This document shows, piece after piece, positions 3,877-64,000 of a DNA stretch of 64,000 bases. The position numbers were made by a program, and so were the translations under genes. Location: contig JAOAHX010000003.1 of NCBI GenBank assembly GCA_026415035.1, positions 80,759-144,758 of the forward strand. Reading direction: 5' to 3'. The notes beneath the pieces were generated by a model, which saw only the letters and a list, made by a program, of their open reading frames with translations, was not told where the DNA came from and searched no databases. The stretch's first letter is position 1. Each line of letters begins with the position of its first letter. Source of the DNA: Thermodesulfobacteriota bacterium. Lineage in GTDB: Bacteria > Desulfobacterota > BSN033 > UBA1163.

Positions 3877-4812
3877 TCAGAGGTTGGTGAGGTGGCGTCG
3901 GGCCTCAAGCTCCTCCCTCAGCTCCTCGTCCTCCTGAAGCCCCTTCAGGACCCGATCGATCACCCGGATCATCTCCTCCTTGGCCTCGGGCAATTTCCCG
4001 TGGAGGGGGACGAGGTTGGAGATGTGGTCGCTCAGGAACTGGGAGGTGACCTGAAGCTCCTTCAAGAGAAGCCTCGTCTCCTTCAGGATGGTCTCGGGAG
4101 AGGCGGAACGGAAGCGGCCTTCCATCATGTCCTCGAAAAGTTGGGAGTTGGGTTGGGGGATCAAGGTCCGAACCCGGATGAAGTGAGGGTCGATCTGATT
4201 CAGAACCTCTGCCGTCCCCCTGGCGTGTTGCTCCCATCGCTCCTCTCCGCCGATCCCCAAAAGCACATACAGGGAATATTCGAACCCGGCCTCTTTCGCC
4301 TTTCTCCCCGCCTCGACCATCTCTTCAGGCGTGGCTCCCTTGTCGATCTCCGCCAGAAGCTCCCGATCTCCTGTCTCGAGACCGACGTGGAGGCGATTCA
4401 ATCCTGCCTCGAAGATCTTTTTCAACTCCTCCATGGGTTTCTTGGCGATCGTCTTGGCCCGGGCATAGCTGGTCACCCTCTCGATGTGCGGAAACGAATC
4501 GTATAAGGCCTTTAAAATGTGAACGAGCTCGTCGGCCTTGAGAACGAGGCTATTCGAATCGCCGATGAAGACCGTCCGGACCTGGTCGCTGTACAGCTCC
4601 CTCGCCATGGAGATGTCCTCGAGGACCTCCTCGATGGGCCTCTTTTCGAATTTCATCCCTTTATACATGGAGCAGAAGGTGCAGCGGTTCCAAGGGCATC
4701 CCCGGGTCACCCTGAGCAAGAGGCTATTGGCCTCGCTCGGGGGACGGAAAGGAGGAAAATCATACTGCCGTCTCCTTAAACCGAATCTCCCGATCGTCAT
4801 GCTCTCCCCCAT
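3877..4812 (-). CDS. radical SAM domain protein with non-canonical Cx4Cx2C cluster motif
   Basis: 311 aa. The motif RGCPWNRCTFCSMY was confirmed codon by codon (tgc cct tgg aac cgc tgc acc ttc tgc). Downstream are a GDSN glycine-rich SAM motif and TIM-barrel-like periodicity. The subfamily is unknown. The start could be M5. Confidence 0.8.
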   Translation of the reverse strand: MGESMTIGRFGLRRRQYDFPPFRPPSEANSLLLRVTRGCPWNRCTFCSMYKGMKFEKRPIEEVLEDISMARELYSDQVRTVFIGDSNSLVLKADELVHILKALYDSFPHIERVTSYARAKTIAKKPMEELKKIFEAGLNRLHVGLETGDRELLAEIDKGATPEEMVEAGRKAKEAGFEYSLYVLLGIGGEERWEQHARGTAEVLNQIDPHFIRVRTLIPQPNSQLFEDMMEGRFRSASPETILKETRLLLKELQVTSQFLSDHISNLVPLHGKLPEAKEEMIRVIDRVLKGLQEDEELREELEARRHLTNL

Positions 4813-4823
4813 CCTGTGAATTT

Positions 4824-5579
4824 CTAAAAGAGGACGCTCACCCCGATCCCTCTCTTTTCGAAACCCTCCTTTAAAGCCACCCCCACTAATTTAAAATAAT
4901 CATCCGTCAAGTAGGTGTCCAGCCCGTTCCTCTCGTAAAGCCTTTTCACCTTTTGCATATAATTCATCCGGTCGATCCACACCTCCTCCACCCTCCCCAC
5001 GAGCATCTTAACCACCGCCTCCGGTTTCAAGGGAAGGATCGGGCCGATGAAGGCATAGGTCTTCACCCCATTCTGCCTCAAGACCTCCAAGGCCCTCAAC
5101 CGTTCGGAGATGGGAGGGGATCGAGGTTCGAAGATCTTCCTCATCTGGTCGTCATCCGTGGTGATGGAAAGCCCCACCTCGATATGTTCGAACCCTTTAA
5201 AAAGATCGACATCCCTCAGACAGAGAGGCGATCGGGTCAAGACATGAACGGGAAACCCCCTTTCCAGGAGCGCTTCTAAACATCCGCGGGTCACCCCATA
5301 TCTCCTTTCAAGGGGTTGGTAGGGGTCCGTGACCGTGCCGAGGGCCACGACTCCTCTCCTCGCCCTCTTCAGCTGTTCCTTCAACCGAAAGACCGCATTC
5401 ACCTTCACATCGACGAACTCCCCCCAAGGTTCCCGATGGCCGGTGAATCGCTTCATAAAGCTGGCATAACAATACCGGCACCCATGACCGCAACCCACGT
5501 AAGGGTTCAGGCAGTAATCGAAACCCGAGATGGCCGTCCGGGTGAGAACGGTCTTTACCAGGACCTCTTTAATCTTCAC
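4824..5579 (-). CDS. radical SAM protein, SplB/'DNA repair photolyase' (COG1533)-like
   Basis: 251 aa. LNPYVGCGHGCRYCYA is a canonical Cx3Cx2C motif in the context typical of spore-photoproduct-lyase-family proteins. Confidence 0.75.
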   Translation of the reverse strand: MKIKEVLVKTVLTRTAISGFDYCLNPYVGCGHGCRYCYASFMKRFTGHREPWGEFVDVKVNAVFRLKEQLKRARRGVVALGTVTDPYQPLERRYGVTRGCLEALLERGFPVHVLTRSPLCLRDVDLFKGFEHIEVGLSITTDDDQMRKIFEPRSPPISERLRALEVLRQNGVKTYAFIGPILPLKPEAVVKMLVGRVEEVWIDRMNYMQKVKRLYERNGLDTYLTDDYFKLVGVALKEGFEKRGIGVSVLF

Positions 5580-10775: not shown

Positions 10776-12269
10776 TCAGGAGTTGGCGTTCTCGGGTTTC
10801 AGCTTCTTCTGGAGGCCGGAGGAGTATACCACGATGGCCGATTCTCCATCGACGGGACACTTATTTTCGCAGATCCCGCAGCCCGTGCACCTCTCCTCCT
10901 TCACGATCGGCCGCTTCTTCTCGTCGCCCACGATGGCGTGATAGGAGCACTGCTCGTTGCAGACCAGGCAGATCTTATCCGTATCCCAGGCGATGCATCG
11001 GGTCTTGTCGATGTGGGCCACGCCGACCTGGGTGAGCCTCTTCTCCTCGATCGTCAGGGGTCGGATGGCCTCGGTGGGGCAGACCCTTCCGCAGAAGTTG
11101 CAGAACTCTTCGCAGTACCCTATCCGGGGGACCAGCCTCGGGGTGTAAAGCCCGGCAAGGCCTGCCTCCAAGAAGGTCGATTGGAGGGCATTGTTGGGAC
11201 AGACCTTCAAACACTCGCCACACCCCGTGCAGACAGCGACGAAGGCCTCCTCCGGGAGGGCCCCTGGAGGTCGGATCAGGCGGTTATTCCTTATCCCGCT
11301 CTCCGTCTGGAGGGGATTGGTCTTGATCATCAGGGCGGTGGTCAGGCCAAAGGCGAAGGATCCCAGGACGTAGCGCCTTGAGAGATCGACCCCTTCCACG
11401 CTCTTCCATTTTGGGAGGCGAATATGGAAGGAGACCGCTTTGGGAGGGCAGTCGAGACAGTTAAGACAGGTGATACAATCCGGGTGGCGATAGGTTCTGG
11501 GCGCCTTCGCCGGGATGACCCCTACGGGACATTCCCGGACGCATTTCTGACACTGGGTACAACCCTCCGTCACGGTCCGTTTGAGGATCCGGAGCCTTGA
11601 GGTGATCGAGAAAAGGGTCCCCAAGGGACAGAGATAACGGCACCAGAATCGCTTTCGGATCATGCCGAGGCCGAGGAGGGTGACGAAGAAGAGGAAGATG
11701 AAGAGGTTGACCTTGAAGATGGGCAGGGGAATCGTCGAGGCGAGGAGGGAATTCCTCGGCAGAAGTTGCTGAATCTGAGGGAGGAGTTGATTGTAGAGGT
11801 AGACGGCCGGAGGGTAAAAGGAGATGATCAGGGTCCGGGTGATGAGGCTGATGGGGTCGACGAGGTACATCACCTGAAAGGCCATCCATCCGGCAACGAT
11901 GGAGAAGATGAACACGCCGTATCGCAACCTGCGGAGCATCCCGTCCTCGAAGGGTTGGGTCCGTTTCCTCTCCCTGAAGAGGACCCGATCGAAGAAGTCG
12001 ATCACCGCGCCCATGGGGCAGAACCACCCGCAGAAGAAGTTTCCGACGACCGCCATGAGGAGAAGGACCCCGAAAGCCGGAATCATCCTTTCGATGACCC
12101 CCTTGTGGCTCAGGGTTGAGATGAGGGCGATGAAGGGGTCGAGGCGAAGGTAGAGGTCGACCGGGATCCCAATCTCCAGGGGAAAGGCCGTCTTGAGGAC
12201 AAGATAGAGGAGAAAGAGGAAGGAGAGGGCTTGAACCGACCTCCTCGCCAGGGCGATCCAACGGTTCAT
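10776..12269 (-). CDS. NapH/MauN-like integral-membrane polyferredoxin with a C-terminal multi-[4Fe-4S] domain
   Basis: 497 aa. Membrane-embedded CGWFCPMG and [10 protein letters not shown] motifs are followed by about 6 ferredoxin-type Cys motifs ([36 protein letters not shown] and others). The start overlaps the upstream stop as ATGA. Confidence 0.85.
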
Positions 12270-13216
12270 GTGGCGCTGACCCTTTTCACCCGGACTTTCG
12301 AGAGATCGATCTCGCCCAGTCCCGCTTCGTAGCCCAACTTGATGAACTTGATCTCCCCGGGTGTAAAGGGTTTTCCGGTTTTGGGATTTTTAAAATAGGC
12401 CGCGGCGTAGGCATCGGCCGCCACCATGTCGGTGGCTGCGACCACCTCGTTAGGATCCTCCGTCTTCCCTGGCCCCTTGGGTCCGTTGGTGGTCAAAATC
12501 CGGATGGCATCGACGATGGTCAGGTCGGGCTTCCGAACGGTGCTGATATCGGCAATGCACTGGTGAAGATCGATCTTGTGCATGATCTCCATGTCCCAGG
12601 CGATCCCCATCAAGTTCTTCATGCCGAGGGTGACTTCCGTGGCAAAGTGATGTTTGGGAATGGGGAAGTTGATAAAGACGTCGGCTTCAAGGACGTCGAT
12701 CAAGACCTCGGCCGTCTTCAACTTCTTCGCCTTGGGGATATCCACATTTTTATAGACATTCCGGCCATGGCCTGAGAGGACGTCCGCCCCAGCCCTCTGC
12801 CCGGCCTCCTTCAACCCTGAGCGGGTAAAGGCAAACTGGTAATTATCGCAGGTATGGTCCCAGACCGCGACCCGTTTGGCTCCCGCCTCGTAGCACATCT
12901 TCACCAGCGCATAAAGGAGGTCGGGATTGTTTGTGCAGGCCTGCTCCGGCGTCCTGGCCCAGGCGATGTTGGCCTTGATCACCACCCTCTGCCCCTTCTT
13001 CACGAACCGCCCCATCCCTCCCAAGGGGGCCATGGCCGCCCGTAGGAGCTGGGCCGGCGTCCCGTTCTTCGCGATCACGAGGTCAGCATCGGCCGAGGCA
13101 TGGGCGAGGCTCCCGTAAAAAGGGAGAGACCCCATGACCATGGGGGTGGCGGCGATCGCAGTCGCTCCCTTTAGAAACTCTCTCCTGGTCAACTTTCTTC
13201 CTGAAGAATCGGCCAT
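12266..13216 (-). CDS. Tat-exported DUF362 domain protein
   Basis: 316 aa with the twin-arginine leader RKLTRREFLKGATAIAATPMV...AHA. The DUF362 core pattern (GGMGRFVKKGQRVVIKAN ... EADVFINFPIPKHH ... LTIVDAIR) is colinear with the ORF at 33916-35079. Confidence 0.8.
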   Translation of the reverse strand: MADSSGRKLTRREFLKGATAIAATPMVMGSLPFYGSLAHASADADLVIAKNGTPAQLLRAAMAPLGGMGRFVKKGQRVVIKANIAWARTPEQACTNNPDLLYALVKMCYEAGAKRVAVWDHTCDNYQFAFTRSGLKEAGQRAGADVLSGHGRNVYKNVDIPKAKKLKTAEVLIDVLEADVFINFPIPKHHFATEVTLGMKNLMGIAWDMEIMHKIDLHQCIADISTVRKPDLTIVDAIRILTTNGPKGPGKTEDPNEVVAATDMVAADAYAAAYFKNPKTGKPFTPGEIKFIKLGYEAGLGEIDLSKVRVKRVSAT

Positions 13217-33178: not shown

Positions 33179-33919
33179 TTAATACTTCACCTCCTTTAAA
33201 AAGAGGCCGTGGGCTGGGGCCGTGGGCCCGGCCATCCTCCGGTCTTTTGAATCGATCACCCTCTGGAATCCTTCCGCATCGATCTTGCCCTTCCCGACCT
33301 CGATGAGCGTCCCCACGATGGCCCGCACCATCTGCTTCAAAAAACCATTGGCCTCGATCTGAAACCGCATCAGGCCCTCCCCTCCCTCCCTCCACTCTGC
33401 TCGAAAGACCTCACGGATGGCGCTCTTCGCCGGAGACCCTGTGGAACGAAAGGCGGAGAAGTCATGTCTCCCCACGAGCCTCTGGGTCGCCCTTTTCACC
33501 TCCTCCCAGTCCAGGGGATAGGGAATATGCCAGGCATAGAAGCGATCGAAAACGGGCCTGAGGGGGCGATTCAAGATCCGGTACTCATAGATTTTGCTCT
33601 TGACCCCCCTGCGCGCATGGAAGGCCTCATCCACCTCCTCCACCTTCAGGACGAGAATATCTTCGGGAAGGAGGCTATTCAAGGCCCGATGGAGGGAGGA
33701 GAGATCAAGACCCTTTCGGGTCGTGAAATGGGCGACCTGACCGCAGGCATGGGCTCCGGCATCGGTCCTTCCCGATCCCACGAGGCGAACCGGTTCCCCC
33801 AGAATTCTGGCCAGTCGTTCTTCAATCACCCCTTGGATGGTCTCGCCCTGGGCCTGGACCTGCCAGCCCCGGTAATTCGTCCCGTCGTATTCGATCAAGA
33901 GCTTGATCTTCCGAATCAT
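33179..33919 (-). CDS. truA: tRNA pseudouridine(38-40) synthase TruA
   Basis: IKLLIEYDGTNYRGWQVQ and GSGRTDAGAHA motifs. Start reassigned to ATG 33919, which forms an ATGA overlap with the upstream stop. Confidence 0.9.
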   Translation of the reverse strand: MIRKIKLLIEYDGTNYRGWQVQAQGETIQGVIEERLARILGEPVRLVGSGRTDAGAHACGQVAHFTTRKGLDLSSLHRALNSLLPEDILVLKVEEVDEAFHARRGVKSKIYEYRILNRPLRPVFDRFYAWHIPYPLDWEEVKRATQRLVGRHDFSAFRSTGSPAKSAIREVFRAEWREGGEGLMRFQIEANGFLKQMVRAIVGTLIEVGKGKIDAEGFQRVIDSKDRRMAGPTAPAHGLFLKEVKY

Positions 33920-35079
33920 CGCCGAAGTGGGTGCCCCTCTCCGGCGGGCCACCGAGGAGATCTTCCATCGAGCCATCTCGTGGCCCATCCGGGCCGGATC
34001 TTGATCGCTCCTTGCGGACAGACCTCTTGACAGCAGAAACAATGGATGCAACGGCCCTCATCGATCGAAAGCCCCTTGACCCCGTCCCTGAGGGCCCCTG
34101 GAGGGCAGACTTCCACACACTGAAGACATCGGACACAGGAGGTCGAATCGAGCACCGGCCTGGCCTGGAGCGCATTCTTGAGGCCTTTCTTCAGAAAGGA
34201 GGGCAGCGACCAATCCGTCCGGCCCACGCTCGGCAATTTGAAACGGTCGATCTTCGATCTCCCGATCCCCTCGCCCACGACCCGGATCTCCCCTGCCTCG
34301 ATCCCCTGTTCGAGGCCGACACGATTGGTCAGGAGGGCCCTTCTTGGAAGTCCGAGGAGATCGCAGACCACCTGATCGAGGCTGAGGGAGGAGGGACTTG
34401 CCAGGAGGAGTCCGAGGGAGATCGGATCGCCGCTGTTCGGTCCGCTGCCCTCCATCCCGAGGATCCCATCGAGGATGGTCAATCGAGGTTGGACGATCTG
34501 GTAGAGATCGATGAGGACCTGGGCGAACCGGTAAGGATCCTCCCCGGCCTTGAGATGCCACATGGCCTTTCTCGTGCCCGGGATGCAACCGAAGAGGTTT
34601 TTGACCCCCAAGGTGAGAAGCATCTGGCCATGGGTCTTCCATTTCGGAAGGTTGATCACGACGTCCGCCTCGAAGACGGCCTGGTCGATCTCGATCTTCT
34701 TGAAGATCCTTCCGATCCTTTTCGAAGGGGGAACAGGCCGGTTGAATTCGATGATGGGACACCCCATCTCTTCTGCAACCCTTTGGATCCCTGCCTTCTC
34801 GGCCACGCTTTTGGCACTGCCGATGGCCGGGCTGTCCCCGAGGAAGGGGAGTCCTCCTGCCTCCTGGACCAGTTGGATGACGGCCTTGATGATCGAGGGG
34901 TGGGTCGTCACGGCACATTCGGGCCGCTTCCCGTAGAGGAGATTGGGTTTGAGGAGGACCCGGTCTCCCCTATGGACGAACGTCCCCATCCCTCCCAGAA
35001 GGTCGATGGATCGCCTGAGAGCCTTTAGGACCTCGGCCTCCTCATAACGATGACATCGAACGATCGATACCCTGGCCAT
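33916..35079 (-). CDS. cytoplasmic DUF362 domain protein fused to a 2x[4Fe-4S] ferredoxin domain
   Basis: 387 aa. The DUF362 core (LGGMGTFVHRGDRVLLKPN, EADVVINLPKWKTH, LTILDGI) is followed by CVRCLQCVEVCP and CIHCFCCQEVCP. Confidence 0.8.
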   Translation of the reverse strand: MARVSIVRCHRYEEAEVLKALRRSIDLLGGMGTFVHRGDRVLLKPNLLYGKRPECAVTTHPSIIKAVIQLVQEAGGLPFLGDSPAIGSAKSVAEKAGIQRVAEEMGCPIIEFNRPVPPSKRIGRIFKKIEIDQAVFEADVVINLPKWKTHGQMLLTLGVKNLFGCIPGTRKAMWHLKAGEDPYRFAQVLIDLYQIVQPRLTILDGILGMEGSGPNSGDPISLGLLLASPSSLSLDQVVCDLLGLPRRALLTNRVGLEQGIEAGEIRVVGEGIGRSKIDRFKLPSVGRTDWSLPSFLKKGLKNALQARPVLDSTSCVRCLQCVEVCPPGALRDGVKGLSIDEGRCIHCFCCQEVCPQGAIKIRPGWATRWLDGRSPRWPAGEGHPLRR

Positions 35080-56678: not shown

Positions 56679-58256
56679 TCACCTCACGTCGGACCATTTC
56701 CCGTACCTTTCTCTGAGGATGCGGTGGAGGATCTTTCCGGTGGGGGTCATGGGCATCTCCTCATCCTTGATGAAATCGACCGACTTCGGGATCTTGTAGC
56801 CTGCGATCTTTCCCCGGCAATAGTCGATCAGTTCCTTCTCCGATACCGTCTGCCCCTGATGGAGGGTTACCACGGCCTTCACCGCCTCTCCCCATTTGGG
56901 GTCGGGAACGCCGATGACCGCCACATACTTCACGGCAGGGTGGGAACCGATCACGTTCTCGACTTCCGACGGGAAGACGTTCTCGCCACCCGTGATGATC
57001 ATATTGGCCTTCCGATCGACGAGGACGTAATAACCATCCTCATCCTGATAGGCCATATCGCCCGCGGAGAACCACTCTCCCCGGAAGACCGATTTCGTCT
57101 TCTCCGGGTCCTTCCAGTATTCCTTGAAGATGTGGGGTGTTCGGGAGTAGAGCTCTCCCACCTGACCTCGCGGCACCTCATTTCCGTTCTCATCAAGGAT
57201 CTTGATGCGGTCGGTCCCCCAGATCTCTCTTCCGATCGAACCTAACTTTTTGAACTGTTCCTCCGGACGGAGCAAGGTCACCAGGCCCGCCTCCGTCGAC
57301 CCATAGGCTTCCCAGAGCTCGGCATTTTTGAAGTATTCCATGATGGCCAGTTTGGTGTCCCTTCGGGCCGGGGCCGAAGAGATGAGGAGCTGGCGGATGG
57401 AGCTGACATCGATGCTCTTCTTCACCTCGTCTGGCAGCGAGAGCATCATGATGTAGTGGGTGGGAACGAGGGAGGTGAAGGTGATCCTCTCTTTTTCGAT
57501 CGTCTTGAGAAGATCGAGGGGATCGAAGCTGATCATATTATAGACGAAGACCCTGGCGCTCACATAGGTATAGGTGAAGGAATAATAAATGGAATTGATA
57601 TGGCACATGGGCATGACCAGCATCACGCAATCATCCGGCCTAAGCCCCATGTTGATGGCATTCAAAATGTATTGAGAGACGTTCCCCTCATGGGTCCTGA
57701 CCACCCCCTTCGGCTTTCCTGTGGTGCCGGAGGTGTACATGATGTTCCACATATCCTCCGCATCCACGATCACATCGGGCTCCTCGGGGGAGGCCTTCGC
57801 CAGGAGTTCTTCATAGGATTGGTAGCCTTCCGGGGTCTTATCGTCCCCGAAGTAGATATAATTTTCAGGGGGAATATTGGGGAGCTTGCTCCGAATCGAG
57901 TTGACCAAGGGGACGAATTCTTTGGCCACGATGAAGGCCTTTGAGTCGGAGTGGTTCACCACGTATTCGATCTCAGGAGGAGCGAGCCTGAACATGACGG
58001 GGACCGTCACTTGGCCCCCTTTGGCGGACCCCGCATAAAATTCCATCCATTCCACACAGTTATAGGCGAGAATGGCGAACCGGTCTCCTTTCCGAATGCC
58101 CAATTGATTCAGGGCGTTGGCAAAGCGACAACTCCGTTCATTCCACTCCTTAAAGGTCATTTTCCGGAATTTGTCCCCCGCTCCTGGTTTGTCGGGGTAA
58201 TGCATGGCCATCATCTTGAGGACGGTTCCCGCGGTCATCCATTTACTGATCGTCAT
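56679..58256 (-). CDS. AMP-dependent acyl-CoA synthetase/ligase
   Basis: 525 aa with the AMP-binding motif YTSGTTGKPKGV, plus GWFSAGD-type and C-terminal PKTPTGKI-type (PMTPTGKIL) motifs. Confidence 0.9.
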   Translation of the reverse strand: MTISKWMTAGTVLKMMAMHYPDKPGAGDKFRKMTFKEWNERSCRFANALNQLGIRKGDRFAILAYNCVEWMEFYAGSAKGGQVTVPVMFRLAPPEIEYVVNHSDSKAFIVAKEFVPLVNSIRSKLPNIPPENYIYFGDDKTPEGYQSYEELLAKASPEEPDVIVDAEDMWNIMYTSGTTGKPKGVVRTHEGNVSQYILNAINMGLRPDDCVMLVMPMCHINSIYYSFTYTYVSARVFVYNMISFDPLDLLKTIEKERITFTSLVPTHYIMMLSLPDEVKKSIDVSSIRQLLISSAPARRDTKLAIMEYFKNAELWEAYGSTEAGLVTLLRPEEQFKKLGSIGREIWGTDRIKILDENGNEVPRGQVGELYSRTPHIFKEYWKDPEKTKSVFRGEWFSAGDMAYQDEDGYYVLVDRKANMIITGGENVFPSEVENVIGSHPAVKYVAVIGVPDPKWGEAVKAVVTLHQGQTVSEKELIDYCRGKIAGYKIPKSVDFIKDEEMPMTPTGKILHRILRERYGKWSDVR

Positions 58257-58525: not shown

Positions 58526-59374
58526 TTATCCGGCCTGGTGTTGTTTGACCCTATCGGCGATGACGGTGATCGATGAGGTGAAGATATGGAGAAATTTCGA
58601 ATGGGGGATATAGACAAACCATACGAGGCAAGGGATGACGTGGGCATACCATAAGAAGTGGGGATTGATCGTGATGTCTCTCAGAAAAAAGGACAAAAAA
58701 TATCCGAAGAAGGAGATCCAGTTGTTGGCGCTCGGCGGAGTAAAATCGGCCATGTAGACCCGTTCGGCCACCACCTCTGGGTGAGCGATCCGGTATCCCT
58801 CGATGAAAAATCCCGAGGCCACCATATAAAAGATGAAGACGAGGGTGACAATATCCTCCTCTTCCGTCTTCAATTGATCGGGCTTGAGGAAGAATCTCCG
58901 GATCATAGCTAGCACACAGCCGACGAGGATCAAAAAACTGAAGAATTCGAGAAAAAAGTCGAGAAACGGCCGGATGGGTCCGGTCTTAAAGGCATGGGCA
59001 AAGGAGAGGATGGGAAAGGAAGGGCTCCATGCGGCGAGGTAACCGGTGGTGAATCCCTTGATCATATCCACGACGAAGGTCGCGACAAAACCGAACACGA
59101 GAAGGGTGTGGGCGAGCCATCGGTAGAAAGATTGAGCGTAAAGCTTCTTATGGAAGATCACATCGGTCAGGACCGTCTTGATATACCAGCGAGGTCTCTT
59201 CCGGAAGCCCTTCCAGCCTCTTTTGGCCAGGGTGACGAATTTCTCCCAGGAGGTCGCCTGTTCCATTCCCTTCAAGGTCCCCTGAAGATAGAAACCCGCC
59301 CGAAACCACATCCCCCAGAGGAAGAGGATCATCGTGGGAATGAACATCAGATAGAAGATGAGGTGCTTCTCCAT
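58526..59374 (-). CDS. NarI/DsrM/HdrE-like membrane cytochrome b subunit
   Basis: 282 aa with about 6 TM helices and conserved His in TM helices (WLAHTLLVF, YAHVIP...IPHSKFLHIF). It is immediately downstream of the HdrD-like gene. Confidence 0.7.
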   Translation of the reverse strand: MEKHLIFYLMFIPTMILFLWGMWFRAGFYLQGTLKGMEQATSWEKFVTLAKRGWKGFRKRPRWYIKTVLTDVIFHKKLYAQSFYRWLAHTLLVFGFVATFVVDMIKGFTTGYLAAWSPSFPILSFAHAFKTGPIRPFLDFFLEFFSFLILVGCVLAMIRRFFLKPDQLKTEEEDIVTLVFIFYMVASGFFIEGYRIAHPEVVAERVYMADFTPPSANNWISFFGYFLSFFLRDITINPHFLWYAHVIPCLVWFVYIPHSKFLHIFTSSITVIADRVKQHQAG

Positions 59375-59410
59375 TCCGATATCCTCCCCGTCGCCGAGGA
59401 CCGGGGATCC

Positions 59411-60742
59411 TTAGGCCAAATATTTCAGGACGAACTCAGAGATATACATCACCTTTAACGGAACCTTCATCCTCCTGGCGGTGGACTGAATCGTCCGGAC
59501 ACACTGCTGGCAGGCCGAGACAACGACGTCCGCGCCGGTCGCCTGAATCGACTTGATCTTCTCCTTGGCCAGGGCGATGGAGAGCTCTGGATCCACCATC
59601 TCCAAAAGTCCCCCTCCCCCACAACATTTGCTCTGTTCCCTGTGGGTGGCCAACTCCACCAACTCCACCCCTGGGATCGATCGCAGAACCTCTCTCGGTT
59701 CCTCGTATATGCCGCTATGGCGGCCGAGGTCGCAGGGGTCGTGATAGGTCACCCTCACCTTCTCTCCCTTAAATCTGAGCTTCCCCTCTCGGAGGAGGTG
59801 GAGAAGAAACTGGGTGGAATCGTAGAGGTGGAAATCGGTGTGGTACTCCTCGTGCCAGGTATGGTAACAGGAGGGACAGGAGAAGACGACGCTGTGCGCC
59901 CCTCTCTCTTTCACCCCTTCGATATGGTGACGGATGAAACCCTCGACCTCTTTTCTAAACCCAGCCCCGATGAGCGGAAATCCGCAACACCACTCCTCTC
60001 CGCCCAAGAGGGTGAAATCCACCCCTGCCCTGTCCAGGATTTGGGTGAAGCTCTGGGGCACTTTATAAGCCATCGGAAAATAGGCTGAGACGCAGCCCAC
60101 GAAATAGACCACCTCTGCCCGCTCCTTTTGATATCGGTGTGCGGGGAGCCCCTCCAAGCCGTCAAGCCAGTTCGTCCTCGAGCTGTTGGCCTCCCCCGAT
60201 ATGTTATACTTCCCGAGGACGTTCTTCCTCATCATCCCAACATTCTTGGGAAAATGGCCAAGATCGACCAGCACCTCTTTTAAGGCCAGCCAAAGGGTTC
60301 GGGAATCGATGGAGACCGGACATTGAACCGCACACTCTCCGCAGAGGGTGCAGCGATAGACCATCTCCGAAAAGCGCTCCAGTTCCGCCTCGTCCAATTT
60401 GGGTTTGCCAAAGATCCTCGCCCAGAGACCGTACTGTTTCTGGAGGAACTTCTTCAGGGCCTGGATCTTGCCACGGGGGGTGATCCCCTCCTCGGCCCTC
60501 TGACCATAAACCGGGCAGAACCGGAGGCAGTCTCCACACCGGGTGCAGGCATCGATTTCAAGGAGTTGTTTGGGAGAGAATCGTGAAAGGTCCACCTTCC
60601 TCAGGATCGCTTTGCCCTGGAGGCCCCCAAGGGTCTTTCGGCCCCCGTTTGGCTCACCTTTTGAGATTTTTATAACCGAAGTTTCCTGGGTTGTCAACAA
60701 ATTTATATTGGTCTGACCATTTAACTTTAAAATTTCACCCAT
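59411..60742 (-). CDS. HdrD/DsrK-like Fe-S oxidoreductase (2x[4Fe-4S] plus two CCG domains)
   Basis: 443 aa with CTRCGDCLRFCP and CTLCGECAVQCP, followed by the CCG motifs EEWCCGFP and QSKCCGGGG. Confidence 0.85.
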   Translation of the reverse strand: MGEILKLNGQTNINLLTTQETSVIKISKGEPNGGRKTLGGLQGKAILRKVDLSRFSPKQLLEIDACTRCGDCLRFCPVYGQRAEEGITPRGKIQALKKFLQKQYGLWARIFGKPKLDEAELERFSEMVYRCTLCGECAVQCPVSIDSRTLWLALKEVLVDLGHFPKNVGMMRKNVLGKYNISGEANSSRTNWLDGLEGLPAHRYQKERAEVVYFVGCVSAYFPMAYKVPQSFTQILDRAGVDFTLLGGEEWCCGFPLIGAGFRKEVEGFIRHHIEGVKERGAHSVVFSCPSCYHTWHEEYHTDFHLYDSTQFLLHLLREGKLRFKGEKVRVTYHDPCDLGRHSGIYEEPREVLRSIPGVELVELATHREQSKCCGGGGLLEMVDPELSIALAKEKIKSIQATGADVVVSACQQCVRTIQSTARRMKVPLKVMYISEFVLKYLA

Positions 60743-60749
60743 TTTTCGA

Positions 60750-60787
60750 TAATAAAAAGAGAGGGCGTTTTTCCCAACGCCCTCTCT
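60750..60787 (-). terminator. rho-independent terminator after the gcvH-like gene
   Basis: The minus strand reads AGAGAGGGCGTT, a 6-nt loop, AACGCCCTCTCT, then TTTTATTATCG. The stem is 12 bp and perfect. Confidence 0.7.
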
Positions 60788-60809
60788 TCACATTGGTCAT
60801 GCCTTTAGA

Positions 60810-61238
60810 CTATTCCTTCGTCTTCTTCACCCGCTCGATCTCCGACTGGATGAACTCCCCTAACGTGTCGACCCTCATCAGGTTCTTCAGCTCCGCCTCT
60901 AAATTGGAAGGGCTCACCTTGAAGATCCATCCCTTGTCGTAAGGGCTTGCATTGATCAACTCAGGCGAGTCCTCAAGCTCCTCATTTGCCGAGACGACTT
61001 TTCCTGAGACGGGCGCATAGATCCTCCCGACCCATTTCCCCGATTCAAGGGAACCGCAGGGTTTCCCTTGTTCGACCGCTTTACCTGGGGAGGGAAGCTC
61101 GACATAGACGATGTCGCCCGCCAGTTTCTGGGCAAAGTCAGTTGTTCCGACCGTCACAATCTCTCCCTCCACCCTGGCCCAGAAATGTTCTTTGTGATAG
61201 TAGAGATCGTCCGGAAATTGGTACCCTTCGATTTCCAT
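60810..61238 (-). CDS. GcvH-fold lipoyl-carrier protein (GcvH/LbpA-like)
   Basis: 142 aa with YYHKEHFWARVEG...VTVGTTDFAQ and the lipoyl-Lys context GSLESGKWVGRIYAPVSGKVV. No gcvT or gcvP is nearby. Confidence 0.85.
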   Translation of the reverse strand: MEIEGYQFPDDLYYHKEHFWARVEGEIVTVGTTDFAQKLAGDIVYVELPSPGKAVEQGKPCGSLESGKWVGRIYAPVSGKVVSANEELEDSPELINASPYDKGWIFKVSPSNLEAELKNLMRVDTLGEFIQSEIERVKKTKE

Positions 61239-61473
61239 GAAAATGGCCTCCTTTCTTTTTTTCCAGGCTTTATACTACAAAATTCGTTCCTTCACAAGTC
61301 ACCCAGCCCTTCTACCCCTTGACCGCCCAGAGGAAATCTTTTATATTTCTGCCATATTTAAGAAAAATTTCACAAAACGGCTCAGAAGCAGGGGCCAATT
61401 ATACACTAACTTATTGATTCCAAAAGCATAATTGGTTTTTGACTTTTTAGCTTTTCTATTGCATCTTTAAAGT

Positions 61474-61974
61474 ATGATCCACGCGAAAGATCTCGACCCC
61501 GGGTTTAAAGACCTCATAGCAAGAGAACCGGGGGGGCAGCACATCAAGAAATGCTTTGCCTGCGGGACCTGCACGGCAGGTTGTCCGGTCAGGCAGATTA
61601 CGGAACGTTATAACCCGAGGAAGATCATCCGGATGGCCCTCCTGGGGATGAAGAAGGACGTCCTCTCCAGCCCGTTCATCTGGCTCTGCTCTTCCTGCTA
61701 CACCTGCTACGAACGATGCCCCCAAGACGTGAGAATCCCCGAGCTCATGAACGCCATCAAGAACATTGCGGTGCGAGAAGGGCATATCCCTCCTCCGATT
61801 AAAACCCAATTGGAACTCCTCTCCACCTTCGGTCGCCTCCTGGAGATCTCCGATTTTGAAAATGAGAAGCGAAGGGAATTCGGCCTCCCCCTGGTTCAAG
61901 GCCGGACCGAAGAGATCCAAAAGATTTTGAAAGGACTCGGGCTCTGTCATGAAGAAGAAAGAGGACCGGTCTAA
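61474..61974 (+). CDS. hdrC: heterodisulfide reductase subunit C-like protein
   Basis: 166 aa with CFACGTCTAGCP and CSSCYTCYERCP, and NPRKIIR between them, as in HdrC. Confidence 0.8.
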   Translation: MIHAKDLDPGFKDLIAREPGGQHIKKCFACGTCTAGCPVRQITERYNPRKIIRMALLGMKKDVLSSPFIWLCSSCYTCYERCPQDVRIPELMNAIKNIAVREGHIPPPIKTQLELLSTFGRLLEISDFENEKRREFGLPLVQGRTEEIQKILKGLGLCHEEERGPV

Positions 61975-62863
61975 GGAAAGCTCCTATACCCTATTTCTTG
62001 GTTGTACGGTTCCGGTCAGGGCCTTAAATTACGAATTGGCCTCGAGGAAGGTTGCCGGTGCCCTCGGTCTAACCCTTCATGACATCCCTGAGTTTACATG
62101 TTGCGGCTATCCCGTCAAATCGATCAGCCACCATGCCTATCTCCTGATGGCGGCCAGGAATCTGGCCCTCGCTGAGGCCAAAGGGCATCCCATTTGCACC
62201 CTCTGCAGTTCCTGCTGTGGCTCTCTGGCGGAGGCCAACCGAGAACTTCTCGAGGATCCGAGCCTCCGGAAAAGGATCAACGAAGAGCTCTACCGCTGGG
62301 TGGGATTCCGTTACGAGGGCGAGGTGAAAGTCAGCCACCTGACCAGAATCCTTCACCGGGAGGTCGGAACGAAGAAGATCGAAAAGGAAGTCCGCGCCGA
62401 CCTCTCCTCCCTTAGGGTTGCGGCCCATTATGGCTGCCACTTTACCAAACCCTCGGACCTCTACCGAAGGGCCGATGATCCCGAAAATCCCAAAAGTCTC
62501 GATGAGCTGATCGAAGCGACAGGGGCCCAATCCCTTGCTTACGAAGAGAAACTCTCCTGTTGCGGTGGCGGGGTGCTGGCGATCGACGAACAGGTCGCCT
62601 TGGGGATGGCCCAGAGGAAGCTCGATCATATCCACGCCCAAAAAGCGGATGCCATCGTCCTGATCTGTCCTTTTTGCAGCGTGATGTACGAATCGAACCA
62701 GAAGAAGATCGAAAAGGCCTTCGAGAAGGATTATAAACTTCCCGTCCTTTATTATCCCCAACTCCTCGGCCTGGCCCTTGGGATCGATCCGGACGAGCTG
62801 GGCCTGAAGATGAACCGCATCAGGACCTCAGACCTCTTGAAGAAGATAAGGAGGCCGGCCTGA
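61949..62863 (+). CDS. hdrB: heterodisulfide reductase subunit B-like protein (two CCG domains)
   Basis: 304 aa with FTCCGYP and LSCCGGG CCG motifs, plus CSSCC and CPFC contexts. It overlaps hdrC by 26 nt. Confidence 0.85.
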   Translation: MKKKEDRSKESSYTLFLGCTVPVRALNYELASRKVAGALGLTLHDIPEFTCCGYPVKSISHHAYLLMAARNLALAEAKGHPICTLCSSCCGSLAEANRELLEDPSLRKRINEELYRWVGFRYEGEVKVSHLTRILHREVGTKKIEKEVRADLSSLRVAAHYGCHFTKPSDLYRRADDPENPKSLDELIEATGAQSLAYEEKLSCCGGGVLAIDEQVALGMAQRKLDHIHAQKADAIVLICPFCSVMYESNQKKIEKAFEKDYKLPVLYYPQLLGLALGIDPDELGLKMNRIRTSDLLKKIRRPA

Positions 62864-62864
62864 G

Positions 62865-64000
62865 ATGACGACTTCCGACAAACCGACCGGTGCAGTCCTC
62901 GTGGTGGGAGGCGGGATCGGAGGCATCCAGACCTCCCTCGACCTGGCGGAATCCGGGTTGAAGGTCTACCTCCTCGAAAAGAGGATGAGCATCGGCGGGA
63001 CGATGGCCCAGCTCGACAAGACCTTTCCCACCAACGACTGCTCCATGTGCATCATGTCTCCCAAGCTGGTGGATGCTGGCCGCCACCGGAACATCGAAAT
63101 CCTGACCAATGCACGCGTGGAGAGGGTGGAGGGGGGCCCCGGCCATTTCAGGGTTCACATCCATAAAAAGGCTCGCTATGTCACCCTTGAAGATTGCAAG
63201 GCCTGTGGGGAGTGTGCCAAGGTCTGCCCGATCAAGATCCCGAACGACTATGAACAGGGCCTGGTCACCCGTGCGGCCATCTACCAGCTCTTTGCCCAGG
63301 CCATGCCCAGTGCGTACGGGATCGAGAAGAGGGGCGAACCGCCCTGCAGGGCCGCCTGTCCGATCCACGTCAATGCCCAAGGTTACATCGCCCTGATCTC
63401 CGCAGGGAAGTTCGAGGAGGCCCTCGCTTTGGTGAGGGCGAAGAATCCCTTTCCCGGGATCACCGGCCGGATCTGCACCCACCCCTGTGAAACGGCCTGC
63501 CGAAGAGGAGAGGTTGAACAGCCGATCGCCATCGATGGCTTGAAACGGTTCGTCGCCGACCTCGAAATCGAGGACAAAACCGATCTCTCCGTGCCGCCCG
63601 AAAACGGAAAGAAGGTGGCGATCGTCGGCTCTGGCCCTGCAGGCCTTCTGGCCGCATGGGATTTGAGAAAGAAGGGTTATGGGGTCACCATCTTCGAGGC
63701 CCTTCCTGTGGCCGGGGGTATGCTCGCTGTGGGGATCCCGGAGTACCGTCTGCCCCGGGCGGTGTTGAACAAAGAGATCGATTACCTCAGGCGGATGGGC
63801 GTCGAAATCAGGCTCAACACACCCGTTGGGAAAAATCTCACCCTCCGAGGCCTTAAGGAACAGGGCTACGAGGCCATCTTCATCGCCACAGGCGCCCATG
63901 TGAGCCGGAAACTGGGGCTCCCGGGAGAGGAGGCCTCGGGCGTCCTCCATGCCGTGGACTTTTTGAGAAAAGTGGCCCTTGGCCAACCCGTCCAGGTGGG
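62865..64000 (+). CDS. hdrA: HdrA-like flavoprotein fused to a GltD/NfnB-type NAD(P)H module (5' part; open to window end)
   Basis: This frame is open from ATG 62865 to the window edge, so it is absent from the ORF track. It reads MTTSDKPTGAVLVVGGGIGGIQTSLDLAESG...LDKTFPTNDCSMCIMSPK (HdrA signature), CKACGECAKVCP, then NPFPGITGRICTHPCETACRRG and KKVAIVGSGPAGLLAAWDL...AGGMLAVGIPEYRLP (GltD/NfnB-like). The antisense 388-aa track ORF is spurious. Confidence 0.85.
   Translation, partial: MTTSDKPTGAVLVVGGGIGGIQTSLDLAESGLKVYLLEKRMSIGGTMAQLDKTFPTNDCSMCIMSPKLVDAGRHRNIEILTNARVERVEGGPGHFRVHIHKKARYVTLEDCKACGECAKVCPIKIPNDYEQGLVTRAAIYQLFAQAMPSAYGIEKRGEPPCRAACPIHVNAQGYIALISAGKFEEALALVRAKNPFPGITGRICTHPCETACRRGEVEQPIAIDGLKRFVADLEIEDKTDLSVPPENGKKVAIVGSGPAGLLAAWDLRKKGYGVTIFEALPVAGGMLAVGIPEYRLPRAVLNKEIDYLRRMGVEIRLNTPVGKNLTLRGLKEQGYEAIFIATGAHVSRKLGLPGEEASGVLHAVDFLRKVALGQPVQV

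Follow-up and report, generated by a model that had tools for sequence, protein, structure and literature searches.

What do the heterodisulfide reductase (Hdr)-like enzymes of anaerobic bacteria act on? Many bacterial and non-methanogen archaeal enzymes of the HdrABC, Flox-Hdr and HdrD-like types have no known disulfide substrate, DsrC being a candidate only in sulfate reducers, and coenzyme M (CoM) and coenzyme B (CoB) are not expected in a bacterium. The Flox-Hdr of syntrophs has been called an uncharacterized redox complex, with no substrate identified (PMC7382037). The question is raised again by a locus at the end of a 64,000-nt stretch of DNA (hereafter the window) from a Thermodesulfobacteriota bacterium (GenBank assembly GCA_026415035.1, contig JAOAHX010000003.1, positions 80,759 to 144,758), in which the gene of a putative lipoyl carrier resembling GcvH, the H-protein of glycine cleavage, stands between two sets of Hdr-like genes. 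An earlier note on this DNA had proposed that the GcvH-like protein is a dedicated Hdr partner and that the "heterodisulfide" could be the disulfide of its lipoyl group, and this proposal finds support in the adjacency of the genes, in its recurrence in distant lineages and in the non-canonical residues of the protein. The protein may well be a dedicated protein-bound lipoyl dithiol/disulfide carrier shuttling between HdrB and HdrD, a reading in which we have about even confidence. A lipoyl carrier that can be recognized from its sequence and that lies beside Hdr enzymes makes the question of the bacterial "heterodisulfide" directly testable.

The GcvH-like protein and the KW subfamily

The gcvH-like gene (60810..61238, minus strand) encodes a protein of 142 aa which matches Pfam GCV_H with an E-value of 1.4e-43. 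Its AlphaFold model (pLDDT 94.3) superposes in Foldseek on the solved H-proteins of T. thermophilus, E. coli and pea (1ONL, 3AB9 and 1HTP, respectively) with TM scores of 0.84-0.89 and an rmsd of about 1 Å, and differs from canonical H-proteins by a C-terminal helix extension. The predicted lipoyl-lysine is K66 in …SLESGKWVGRIYAPVSG…, which aligns with the E. coli lipoyl-lysine Lys64 (mature-protein numbering). In the E. coli H-protein, Glu12 and Glu14 lock the aminomethyl-lipoyl arm, which is handed on via Ser67, Asp68 and Tyr70, and the residues that hold or release the arm also include His13 (PMC7733448). The window protein keeps the equivalents of Glu12 and Tyr70 and, in E. coli numbering, has the replacements Glu14→Phe, Val63→Gly, Ala65→Trp, Ser67→Gly and Asp68→Arg, the last of which is a charge reversal. 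All five are invariant in 89 of 89 members of its clade, as are the motifs KEHFW and ESGKWVGR; the related loci of this clade number 88, and their GcvH proteins are 75-91% identical to that of the window.

Proteins with Trp directly after the lipoyl-lysine are here called the KW class. An exhaustive HMMER search was made over 1.8 billion cluster representatives, and the 136 nearest 50%-non-redundant representatives were classified, 50 of them being KW-type and 59 canonical. At position 14 (E. coli numbering) the KW-type proteins never have Glu (0/50), whereas 51/59 canonical proteins do; position 63 is Gly in 37/50 KW-type and Val in 51/59 canonical proteins, position 67 is Gly in 49/50 against Ser in 59/59, and position 68 is Arg or Lys in 30/50 against Asp or Glu in 57/59. 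A neighbour-joining tree calculated after removal of the motif columns, which carries no support values and is indicative only, places 39 of 49 KW sequences and the window protein in one clade that includes neither E. coli GcvH nor any other canonical GcvH. These comparisons indicate a family-level split, that is, the KW proteins appear to constitute a distinct large subfamily not remarked on before. The NCBIfam gcvH models do not tell this class from canonical GcvH, but the pattern …(S/T)GKW.G… without Glu14, Ser67 and Asp68 sets the KW proteins apart from the H-proteins of glycine cleavage. Such a rule bears on reconstructions in which glycine cleavage or the reductive glycine pathway is inferred from the presence of gcvH.

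C61 alone among the cysteines is universal in the 89 clade members, and the residue aligned with it in E. coli GcvH is also a Cys. In 36 of the 89 there is a further Cys at position 106, and there is none near either terminus. The search over representatives also gave two proteins with a GcvH fold but no lipoyl-lysine. In P0139 it is replaced by Asp (K→D) and the sequence ends in "…RRPCC"; P0167 carries a Cys at the N-terminus and has "…AGCG" as its last residues. Their terminal cysteines recall the cysteine arms of DsrC and of LbpA, the lipoate-binding protein of sulfur oxidizers.

Two CCG enzymes beside the gcvH-like gene

The gcvH-like gene faces hdrC (61474..61974, plus strand, 166 aa, two [4Fe-4S] motifs), hdrB (61949..62863, plus strand, 304 aa, methanogen-type with two complete CCG motifs) and the 5' part, 378 codons long, of an HdrL-type hdrA (62865..64000, plus strand) that continues past the window end. 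The divergent spacer (61239-61473) has 235 nt and a GC content of 36.6% vs 57.1% for the whole window, hdrB overlaps hdrC by 26 nt, and the hdrA ATG at 62865 lies 1 nt past the hdrB stop; spacer length, overlap and 1-nt gap are as in the earlier note. The window itself covers only these parts of the soluble module, and its extension past the window end was possible only via relatives at 83-90% protein identity; a look-up of the exact HdrB sequence gave no match. Two genome-level metagenome-assembled genomes (MAGs), an uncultured Syntrophorhabdus sp. and a "Deltaproteobacteria bacterium", have the same gene order at this identity. Since this order is also common to dozens of metagenome contigs, the arrangement is not due to chance.

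HdrC matches TIGR03290 (CoB_CoM_SS_C) with 118.8 bits, below the cutoff of 160, and has CxxCxxCxxxC motifs at residues 27 and 72. HdrB matches TIGR03288 with 285 bits (cutoff 345) and aligns over its full length, with 227 bits, with M. thermolithotrophicus HdrB (5ODC_B); each of its ten cluster cysteines has a counterpart there, those equivalent to C78/C81 and C231/C234 among them. The visible part of HdrA comprises the start of the HdrA FAD domain, one [4Fe-4S] motif and, from about residue 150, the GltD/NfnB NAD(P)H module that had been noticed earlier. This module (residues ~150-650) consists of Fer4_20 and Pyr_redox_2 and matches the structures of NfnB, Stn and GltD. In the related locus L001 the full orthologue has 1478 aa and shares 90% identity with the part visible here. 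Its HdrA N-terminus is separated by the GltD/NfnB insert from the remainder of HdrA, after which come another HdrA-like FAD domain and, at the C-terminus, a di-cluster ferredoxin. In comparisons of HdrA with solved structures, methanogen HdrA (5ODC_A) gives 679 bits and the HdrA of the sulfur-oxidizing sHdr system (6TJR) 176 bits.

In L001, hdrA is followed by genes for FlpD (mvhD/flxD, 141 aa), an Fe-S protein of 314 aa (flxC), a HydB/AsrA-like protein of 349 aa (flxB) and FlxA (279 aa, NAD_binding_1 and DHODB_Fe-S_bind), an NAD(P)H/FAD/[2Fe-2S] protein of the HydG/AsrB/PyrK type; the order mvhD-flxC-flxB-flxA recurs in 15 to 20 further loci. Because these genes follow hdrA in the relatives, the soluble module is assigned, on gene content, as a Flx/Flox-Hdr with HdrL. 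HdrL is known from Desulfobacterium autotrophicum and Syntrophobacter fumaroxidans as a fusion of HdrA with GltD whose gene is followed by mvhD (PMC2702500, PMC5947623). Two statements of the earlier note are therefore not supported: that no described Hdr type matches, and that the locus mixes the logic of sHdr with that of methanogens and sulfate reducers, as HdrB and HdrA are methanogen-type and neither hdrC2B2 nor the cysteine pair of LbpA is there. The extension of the contig that the note had suggested gave, via relatives, the mvhD and flx genes it had asked about; hdrC2B2 was not seen, and lipoate-maturation genes were not found in the window.

Behind the gcvH-like gene lie, also on the minus strand, an HdrD-like iron-sulfur protein of up to 443 aa (59411..60742; Pfam CCG, two domains, and Fer4) and a membrane cytochrome b of the NarI/HdrE/DsrM type of 282 aa (58526..59374; Pfam Nitrate_red_gam and conserved His). 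The Pfam match of the cytochrome is weak (26.2 bits vs a cutoff of 22.9), as is a match to the QmoC C-terminus. The assignment is supported by five hydrophobic segments and by five histidines of the cytochrome (75, 89, 245, 258 and 263), each of them kept in 97-100% of 35 orthologues with identities down to 26%. The HdrD-like protein has two CxxCxxCxxxC cubane motifs (C66, C131) and two complete CCG, that is, non-cubane, motifs (C217…C251C252G…C289PSC292 and C337…C372C373G…C411QQC414).

Its best solved relative is M. smegmatis EtfD (9OJN, 141 bits). EtfD and its counterpart EMO, the ETF:menaquinone oxidoreductase, are HdrDE-like enzymes but have closed, non-catalytic clusters (PMC13083937; bioRxiv 10.64898/2026.08.18.745454): in MsEtfD, Thr539 replaces the second CCG cysteine and His583 plugs the substrate site, and SaEMO of S. 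aciditrophicus has His534/Gly535. The window protein has Cys252 at the position of Thr539 and Ser291 at that of His583, and keeps all ten cysteines. The ten-cysteine set is conserved in 30 HdrB and 28 HdrD-like orthologues. Both CCG enzymes that flank gcvH look, from their residues, like real disulfide reductases with sites predicted to be in a catalytic state; since ten cysteines are kept and the closing substitutions of EMO/EtfD are missing, both would need a disulfide-type substrate. An identity of the pair as EMO/EtfD was rejected on these active-site residues, the cytochrome b and CCG parts being moreover separate genes, and identity as DsrMK was rejected because the DsrK equivalog model NF045796 gives 98.7 bits against a cutoff of 400.

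The CCG proteins adjacent to gcvH in Desulfobacteraceae and Syntrophomonas are 42-48% identical to the window HdrD-like protein, compared with 31% for EMO-like and GlcF-like proteins, and the signature CPSC (CSTC in Syntrophomonas)/CQQC is common to all three. EMO-like CPHC fusion proteins occur separately, in loci L044 and L088.

Gene neighbourhoods and expression signals

The earlier note had named a lack of conservation of the adjacency in relatives as the observation that would speak against it. This refutation did not come about. The informative clade loci, with at least 1.5 kb on both sides of gcvH, number 47, and in 42 of them gcvH has one of its redox partners (CCG protein, hdrC, cytochrome b or etfA) encoded no more than 600 nt away. 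In most loci gcvH is situated at the edge of a conserved mutS-asd-rpsI-rplM-secF-secD block, and at least five arrangements occur within the clade. In addition to that of the window, with gcvH divergent to hdrCB-hdrL-mvhD-flxCBA and hdrD-cytochrome b downstream, many loci have gcvH in the same orientation as hdrCBA, which it precedes by 55-90 nt; in others gcvH lies beside an 860-aa FAD-oxidase/Fer4/CCG fusion or 22-26 nt upstream of cytochrome b, and in L005 and L039 genes for an acyl-CoA dehydrogenase (ACAD), EtfB and EtfA are found directly upstream of gcvH and cytochrome b. The flank of gcvH behaves as a variable energy-conservation island. In some loci a Mo-oxidoreductase/4Fe-4S/NrfD/ferredoxin membrane complex or a soluble formate-dehydrogenase-like complex of the NuoE/NuoF/FdhA type lies beside gcvH; such modules of about 5 kb are present in L078 (10465-14707), L067 (9640-14572), L015 (5159-9742) and L032 (10553-15619).

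The association is also met in other lineages. In Desulfobacteraceae-type MAGs (51% identity) a KW gcvH lies between two Fer4/CCG proteins, beside FAD-oxidase and LarA genes; after it come LplA-B/DUF116, the gene of a GGR-like flavoprotein and a pair of radical-SAM genes, which match sLpl(AB)/LipT/LipS1/LipS2, the gene set for LbpA maturation (PMC10332631). Syntrophomonas erecta (L093) and Syntrophomonadaceae MAGs (L098/L099) have two KW genes, an FAD-oxidase/CCG pair and similar maturation genes. A Baldrarchaeota contig has a KW gene abutting hdrC-hdrB-hdrA/mvhD, and in L096 three GCV_H genes are clustered with three CCG proteins. Furthermore, the protein P0121 (1391 aa) is a natural fusion of three GcvH-like domains, all without the Lys, to FAD-oxidase (GlcD-like), Fer4 and CCG domains.

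Some details of these loci may be recorded. The cluster of L093 and L098/L099 contains 2-oxoacid dehydrogenase E1α/E1β/E2, an LplA-cat protein (~230 aa), a radical-SAM protein, KW-GcvH and FAD-oxidase, together with the CCG protein, DUF6506, LplA-cat, the second KW-GcvH, LplA-cat, a LipT-like protein and two radical-SAM proteins; it joins genes resembling those of the lipoyl relay with others resembling those of LbpA maturation. At 8001-16423 of L096/L097 (GCA_002011075.2) the three GCV_H genes are grouped with a CCG protein of 407 aa, a NarI-Fer4-CCG fusion of 626 aa, OsmC and a pair resembling hdrC/hdrB, and an enzyme of the P0121 type adjoins gcvH in L003, L016 and L035.

An AMP-binding (ANL-family) acyl-CoA-ligase-like gene (56679..58256, minus strand, 525 aa; Pfam AMP-binding and AMP-binding_C) follows the cytochrome b gene. 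In 29 of the 29 loci with enough flank the ligase lies within 6 kb of gcvH, and no other gene of the neighbourhood is as highly conserved (97.5% identity to L001, median 86%). With NCBIfam PRK06187 it scores 466 bits (cutoff 476), and one may speculate that it is a fatty- or aromatic-acid CoA ligase or an activator of lipoate or octanoate for the carrier.

The genes of a glycine cleavage system were looked for in the window. Pfam scans of 30 further ORFs (open reading frames), namely all of at least 283 aa and three of 248-251 aa, with five of 243-280 aa outside the scan, gave no GCV_T, GDC-P, dihydrolipoyl dehydrogenase, LplA/LipB/LipA or Dsr domain, which agrees, for the ORFs scanned, with the statement of the earlier note that gcvT, gcvP and lpd are missing from the 64 kb. 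The scans gave housekeeping genes and one acyl-CoA dehydrogenase. Nor were gcvT, gcvP and lpd seen within ±10 kb in the 88 related loci, where the tblastn searches used other queries. With the L091 gene set as tblastn queries, homologues of sLpl(AB), LipT and LipS were found neither in the whole window nor in the clade loci, and the idea of a complete LbpA-type module at the window locus was dropped because these maturation genes are missing. Two adjoining radical-SAM genes (3877-5579, minus strand, 311 and 251 aa) have no tblastn match to the LipS-like genes of L091. Elsewhere in the window, a 497-aa polyferredoxin lies beside a DUF362 protein (10776-13216, minus strand) and a second protein with DUF362 and Fer4 is found at 33916-35079 (minus strand). 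A 388-aa ORF at 62820-63986 (minus strand) was rejected as a gene; it is a shadow antisense to hdrA, with a third-position GC of 0.61 vs ~0.7.

The putative expression signals of gcvH, read from the sequence as consensus matches (61247..61297, minus strand), consist of a -35-like TTGTGA (61297-61292), a spacer of 17 nt, a -10-like TATAAA (61274-61269) and a Shine-Dalgarno sequence AAGGAGG (61253-61247). The hairpin and T-run behind gcvH that had been noted earlier proved to be a terminator-like structure with a 14-bp stem (60756..60789, minus strand) between gcvH and the hdrD-like gene. Hairpins with differing stem sequences occur 3' of gcvH in 30 of 87 loci and in 14 of the 28 loci of the gcvH→hdrD type. 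A promoter-like element of its own, a strong Shine-Dalgarno sequence and a terminator would suit a carrier that is abundant relative to its enzymes. On the other side, the best promoter-like site of the region, TTGACC-N17-TATATT (61319..61347, plus strand, 10/12 matches), faces hdrC. In an alignment of six related loci TTGACC and TTTATA are invariant at this site, and the blocks ACAAGT and TATAC are invariant on the gcvH side. A sigma-54 promoter was sought in the divergent spacer, with no match at up to 2 mismatches.

An invariant element, TTGAC…TATTGCAT, lies directly 5' of the hdrC start (61440-61473, plus strand) and is also present in the six related loci. It is a good match to neither sigma-70 nor sigma-54 promoters and may be a regulatory site; no obvious Shine-Dalgarno sequence precedes hdrC within this stretch. 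The annotated ATG of the hdrD-like gene (60742) is located about 4 nt past the T-run of the terminator, which leaves too little space for a ribosome-binding site. The L001 orthologue has a TTG start and 427 aa, its alignment with the window protein beginning at residue 8, and the 5' part of the gene as annotated includes a near-perfect TTGACA-N17-TATAAA (~60698-60670). The start of the hdrD-cytochrome b unit, like its promoter, can be placed only tentatively.

The proposed lipoyl shuttle and related systems

As described above, the preferred reading is that of a lipoyl shuttle between HdrB and HdrD. On this reading the protein would not act as an H-protein of glycine cleavage, and the KW subfamily would consist of dedicated lipoyl carriers for CCG-domain enzymes. 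At the catalytic site of HdrB and at that of the HdrD-like protein, the K66 lipoyl arm would alternate between its disulfide and dithiol forms. The former of these sites would belong to a cytoplasmic HdrC-HdrB-HdrL/MvhD-FlxCBA complex, which could be linked to NAD(P)H via the GltD insert and FlxA and to ferredoxin probably through the HdrA flavin, and the latter to the membrane HdrD-cytochrome b pair, which would be linked to the menaquinone pool. The carrier would play the part that CoM-S-S-CoB has in methanogens or DsrC in sulfate reducers, and would connect the pyridine-nucleotide and ferredoxin pools to the quinone pool in a syntrophic organism of the Desulfobacterota type. The favoured direction is reduction at HdrB, with electrons passing from the dihydrolipoyl form via HdrD and cytochrome b to menaquinone, because the way from quinol to the lipoyl group would be strongly uphill. 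We infer lipoylation, the role of KW-GcvH as a substrate of HdrB and HdrD, and this direction of electron flow.

A wider claim, which is put forward tentatively and which we regard as somewhat improbable, is that KW-type GcvH is, next to CoM-S-S-CoB and DsrC, a third type of physiological Hdr substrate, as a protein-bound lipoyl dithiol/disulfide or persulfide, across many anaerobic Bacteria and Archaea without CoM/CoB. The catalytic CCG enzymes acting on it would include the HdrB of Flox/HdrL complexes, HdrD with its cytochrome b, and HdrD-like proteins that partner FAD-dependent 2-hydroxyacid dehydrogenases. If true, the claim would explain the target of the syntroph-associated Flox-Hdr and of many orphan HdrD-like proteins, and the principle of sHdr-LbpA would extend from sulfur oxidation to general anaerobic energy conservation.

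Several points weigh against a lipoyl shuttle. Free lipoamide has an E0' of about -290 mV (cited in PMC6067878), which is too low for the high-potential acceptor of an NADH-driven bifurcation of the Flx type and far below menaquinone, so that the energetics of any simple scheme are awkward; the protein environment of Trp67 and Arg71 could shift the lipoyl potential. The gene edges a housekeeping block, and a terminator parts it from the hdrD-like gene and a divergent promoter region from hdrC, so that in the window these genes may not be transcribed together. The synteny in the clade is largely inherited, and it stands perhaps for six to eight independent events, not 88. A KW member from Heimdallarchaeota has no CCG neighbour, and a lipoyl-relay role also fits the Syntrophomonas context. 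Moreover, the NCBIfam gcvH equivalog TIGR00527 accepts the window protein (138 bits vs a cutoff of 115.85), which is also above the cutoff of NF002270 (PRK01202; 157 bits vs 117).

With these scores and with its H-protein fold, the protein could be an ordinary housekeeping H-protein of glycine cleavage or of the reductive glycine pathway, or a donor in the lipoyl relay, held beside Hdr genes by inherited gene order. Such an explanation, which we consider unlikely, would agree with the anchoring of gcvH by mutS-asd-rpsI-rplM-secFD in most loci, with its own promoter and terminator and with the insertion of varied modules, including formate-dehydrogenase-like ones, at a site that may be a hot spot, and for the relay there are the Syntrophomonas KW genes with 2-oxoacid dehydrogenase E1/E2, LplA-like and radical-SAM genes. 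However, the residues of the aminomethyl cavity are replaced throughout the clade, including the charge reversal at Asp68, the ORFs scanned in the 64 kb include no gcvT, gcvP or lpd, neighbouring CCG proteins are found again where the gene order is unrelated and in phyla as distant as Firmicutes and Archaea, and P0121 joins both kinds of domain in one protein. A relay role, in turn, leaves the consistent HdrD neighbour of the CPSC/CQQC type unexplained. The altered cavity is also the reason why a part in [FeFe]-hydrogenase maturation via the aminomethyl-lipoyl-H-protein (PMC12752695) was set aside as unlikely, as that role needs the aminomethyl intermediate; no hyd genes lie nearby.

The lipoyl arm might instead present sulfane sulfur to the CCG sites in sulfur oxidation, disproportionation or persulfide handling, as an LbpA-like sulfur carrier. 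The precedent of LbpA-sHdr (PMC6067878), the sister KW clades whose LplA-B/DUF116, GGR-like and two radical-SAM genes resemble sLpl(AB)/LipT/LipS1/LipS2 (PMC10332631), and the EtfBA found both in sHdr group III and in L005 and L039 would speak for it. It is nevertheless judged quite unlikely: the LbpA cysteine pair is absent, the sole universal cysteine being matched in E. coli GcvH, the locus has no hdrC2B2, no "hyp" gene and no coding space for TusA, DsrE or rhodanese, the 1478-aa HdrL is far nearer to methanogen HdrA than to sHdrA, and the closest named relative is a MAG of Syntrophorhabdus, a genus discussed in the literature as an aromatic-degrading syntroph rather than as a sulfur oxidizer. 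The chance is small that the membrane pair is a split ETF:menaquinone oxidoreductase of the EMO/EtfD type serving beta-oxidation, with GcvH uninvolved. Its nearest solved relative is EtfD, an acyl-CoA ligase and an acyl-CoA dehydrogenase are close by, and ACAD-EtfB-EtfA precedes gcvH and cytochrome b in L005 and L039, but Cys252 and Ser291 stand where EtfD has Thr539/His583, the ten cysteines are intact, and real EMO-like CPHC fusions, only 31% identical, are separate genes in some of the same loci (L044, L088).

Compared with known systems, the lipoyl shuttle proposed here shares parts with several of them. With the canonical H-proteins of E. coli, T. thermophilus and pea the GcvH-like protein has in common the fold, the lipoyl-lysine hairpin and the YAPVSG and GW motifs, and it differs from them in the five replaced residues, in its CCG-enzyme neighbours and in the lack of gcvT, gcvP and lpd nearby among the scanned ORFs. 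HdrDE of Methanosarcina and DsrMK of sulfate reducers likewise combine a NarI-type cytochrome b with a cytoplasmic protein that has two cubane and two CCG motifs with cysteines in the catalytic state; unlike DsrMK, the present pair has no DsrJOP, and the adjacent candidate substrate is a putative lipoyl protein. EMO/EtfD of Syntrophus aciditrophicus and Mycobacterium shares with the present pair its modules (cytochrome b, two cubane, two CCG) and a beta-oxidation context, and provides the closest solved structure; it is, however, usually a fusion, whereas here there are two separate genes with no His "plug" and no missing cysteine.

The FlxABCD-HdrABC/HdrL systems of Desulfovibrio vulgaris, Syntrophobacter fumaroxidans and Desulfobacterium autotrophicum (Ramos 2015, Strittmatter 2009) have hdr genes followed by mvhD/flxD, two Fe-S proteins and a FlxA-like protein, and the HdrA-GltD fusion with the following mvhD in orthologous loci fits the definition of HdrL. 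DsrC is presumed to be what the described Flx-Hdr acts on, and a lipoyl protein is not reported for it, whereas here KW-GcvH heads or diverges from the operon; moreover, the described HdrL accompanies a normal HdrA, which it replaces here.

LbpA-sHdr is the one experimentally established partnership of a GcvH-like with an Hdr-like protein, and LbpA has two strictly conserved cysteines, near the N- and C-terminus, which are absent from GcvH, some archaeal LbpAs being exceptions (PMC6067878). The systems of Hyphomicrobium denitrificans, Thioalkalivibrio, Aquificae and Sulfolobaceae (Cao et al. 2018, Tanabe et al. 2023) share with the window locus a single-domain GcvH-fold protein with the conserved lysine and hdr neighbours, and also the order hdrC-hdrB-hdrA. 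In addition, the sister KW clades share with them the LplA-type ligase, the GGR-like flavoprotein and two radical-SAM genes, the window being without maturation genes, and sHdr group III has EtfBA alongside lipoate-binding proteins, as in loci L005 and L039. On the other hand, the window protein lacks the LbpA cysteine pair; instead of the sHdr set hdrC1-hdrB1-hdrA-hyp-hdrC2-hdrB2, the window/L001 locus has one hdrC-hdrB pair without hyp or hdrC2B2 and has no coding space left for TusA, DsrE and rhodanese genes; sHdrA has about 350 aa vs the 1478 aa of HdrL with its NfnB-like module (L001); and a Flx module and a quinone-linked HdrD/cytochrome b are part of the present system. Furthermore, the hosts of sHdr are sulfur oxidizers, whereas those of the KW proteins are strict anaerobes (syntrophs, sulfate reducers and archaea).

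A description of a GcvH-Hdr association in Desulfobacterota or in syntrophs was not found in the searchable literature. In Culexarchaeia, GcvH occurs inside an Hdr/hydrogenase cluster and was suggested to be a disulfide carrier (PMC9723716). This cluster of Ehe hydrogenase/HdrBC/HdrA2B2C2 (Kohtz et al. 2022) thus has GcvH among Hdr genes in an organism without CoM/CoB, and its authors considered that GcvH might coordinate the disulfide for HdrB; the case is archaeal and hydrogenase-linked, and GcvH is mentioned there in passing. The KW-GcvH beside hdrCB-hdrA/mvhD in Baldrarchaeota suggests that the Culexarchaeia protein may belong to the same subfamily. The Hdr hardware of the window locus is of described types and the GcvH-like protein is the new element, that is, the known principle of a lipoate-binding protein working with Hdr-like enzymes is met here in a new biological setting.

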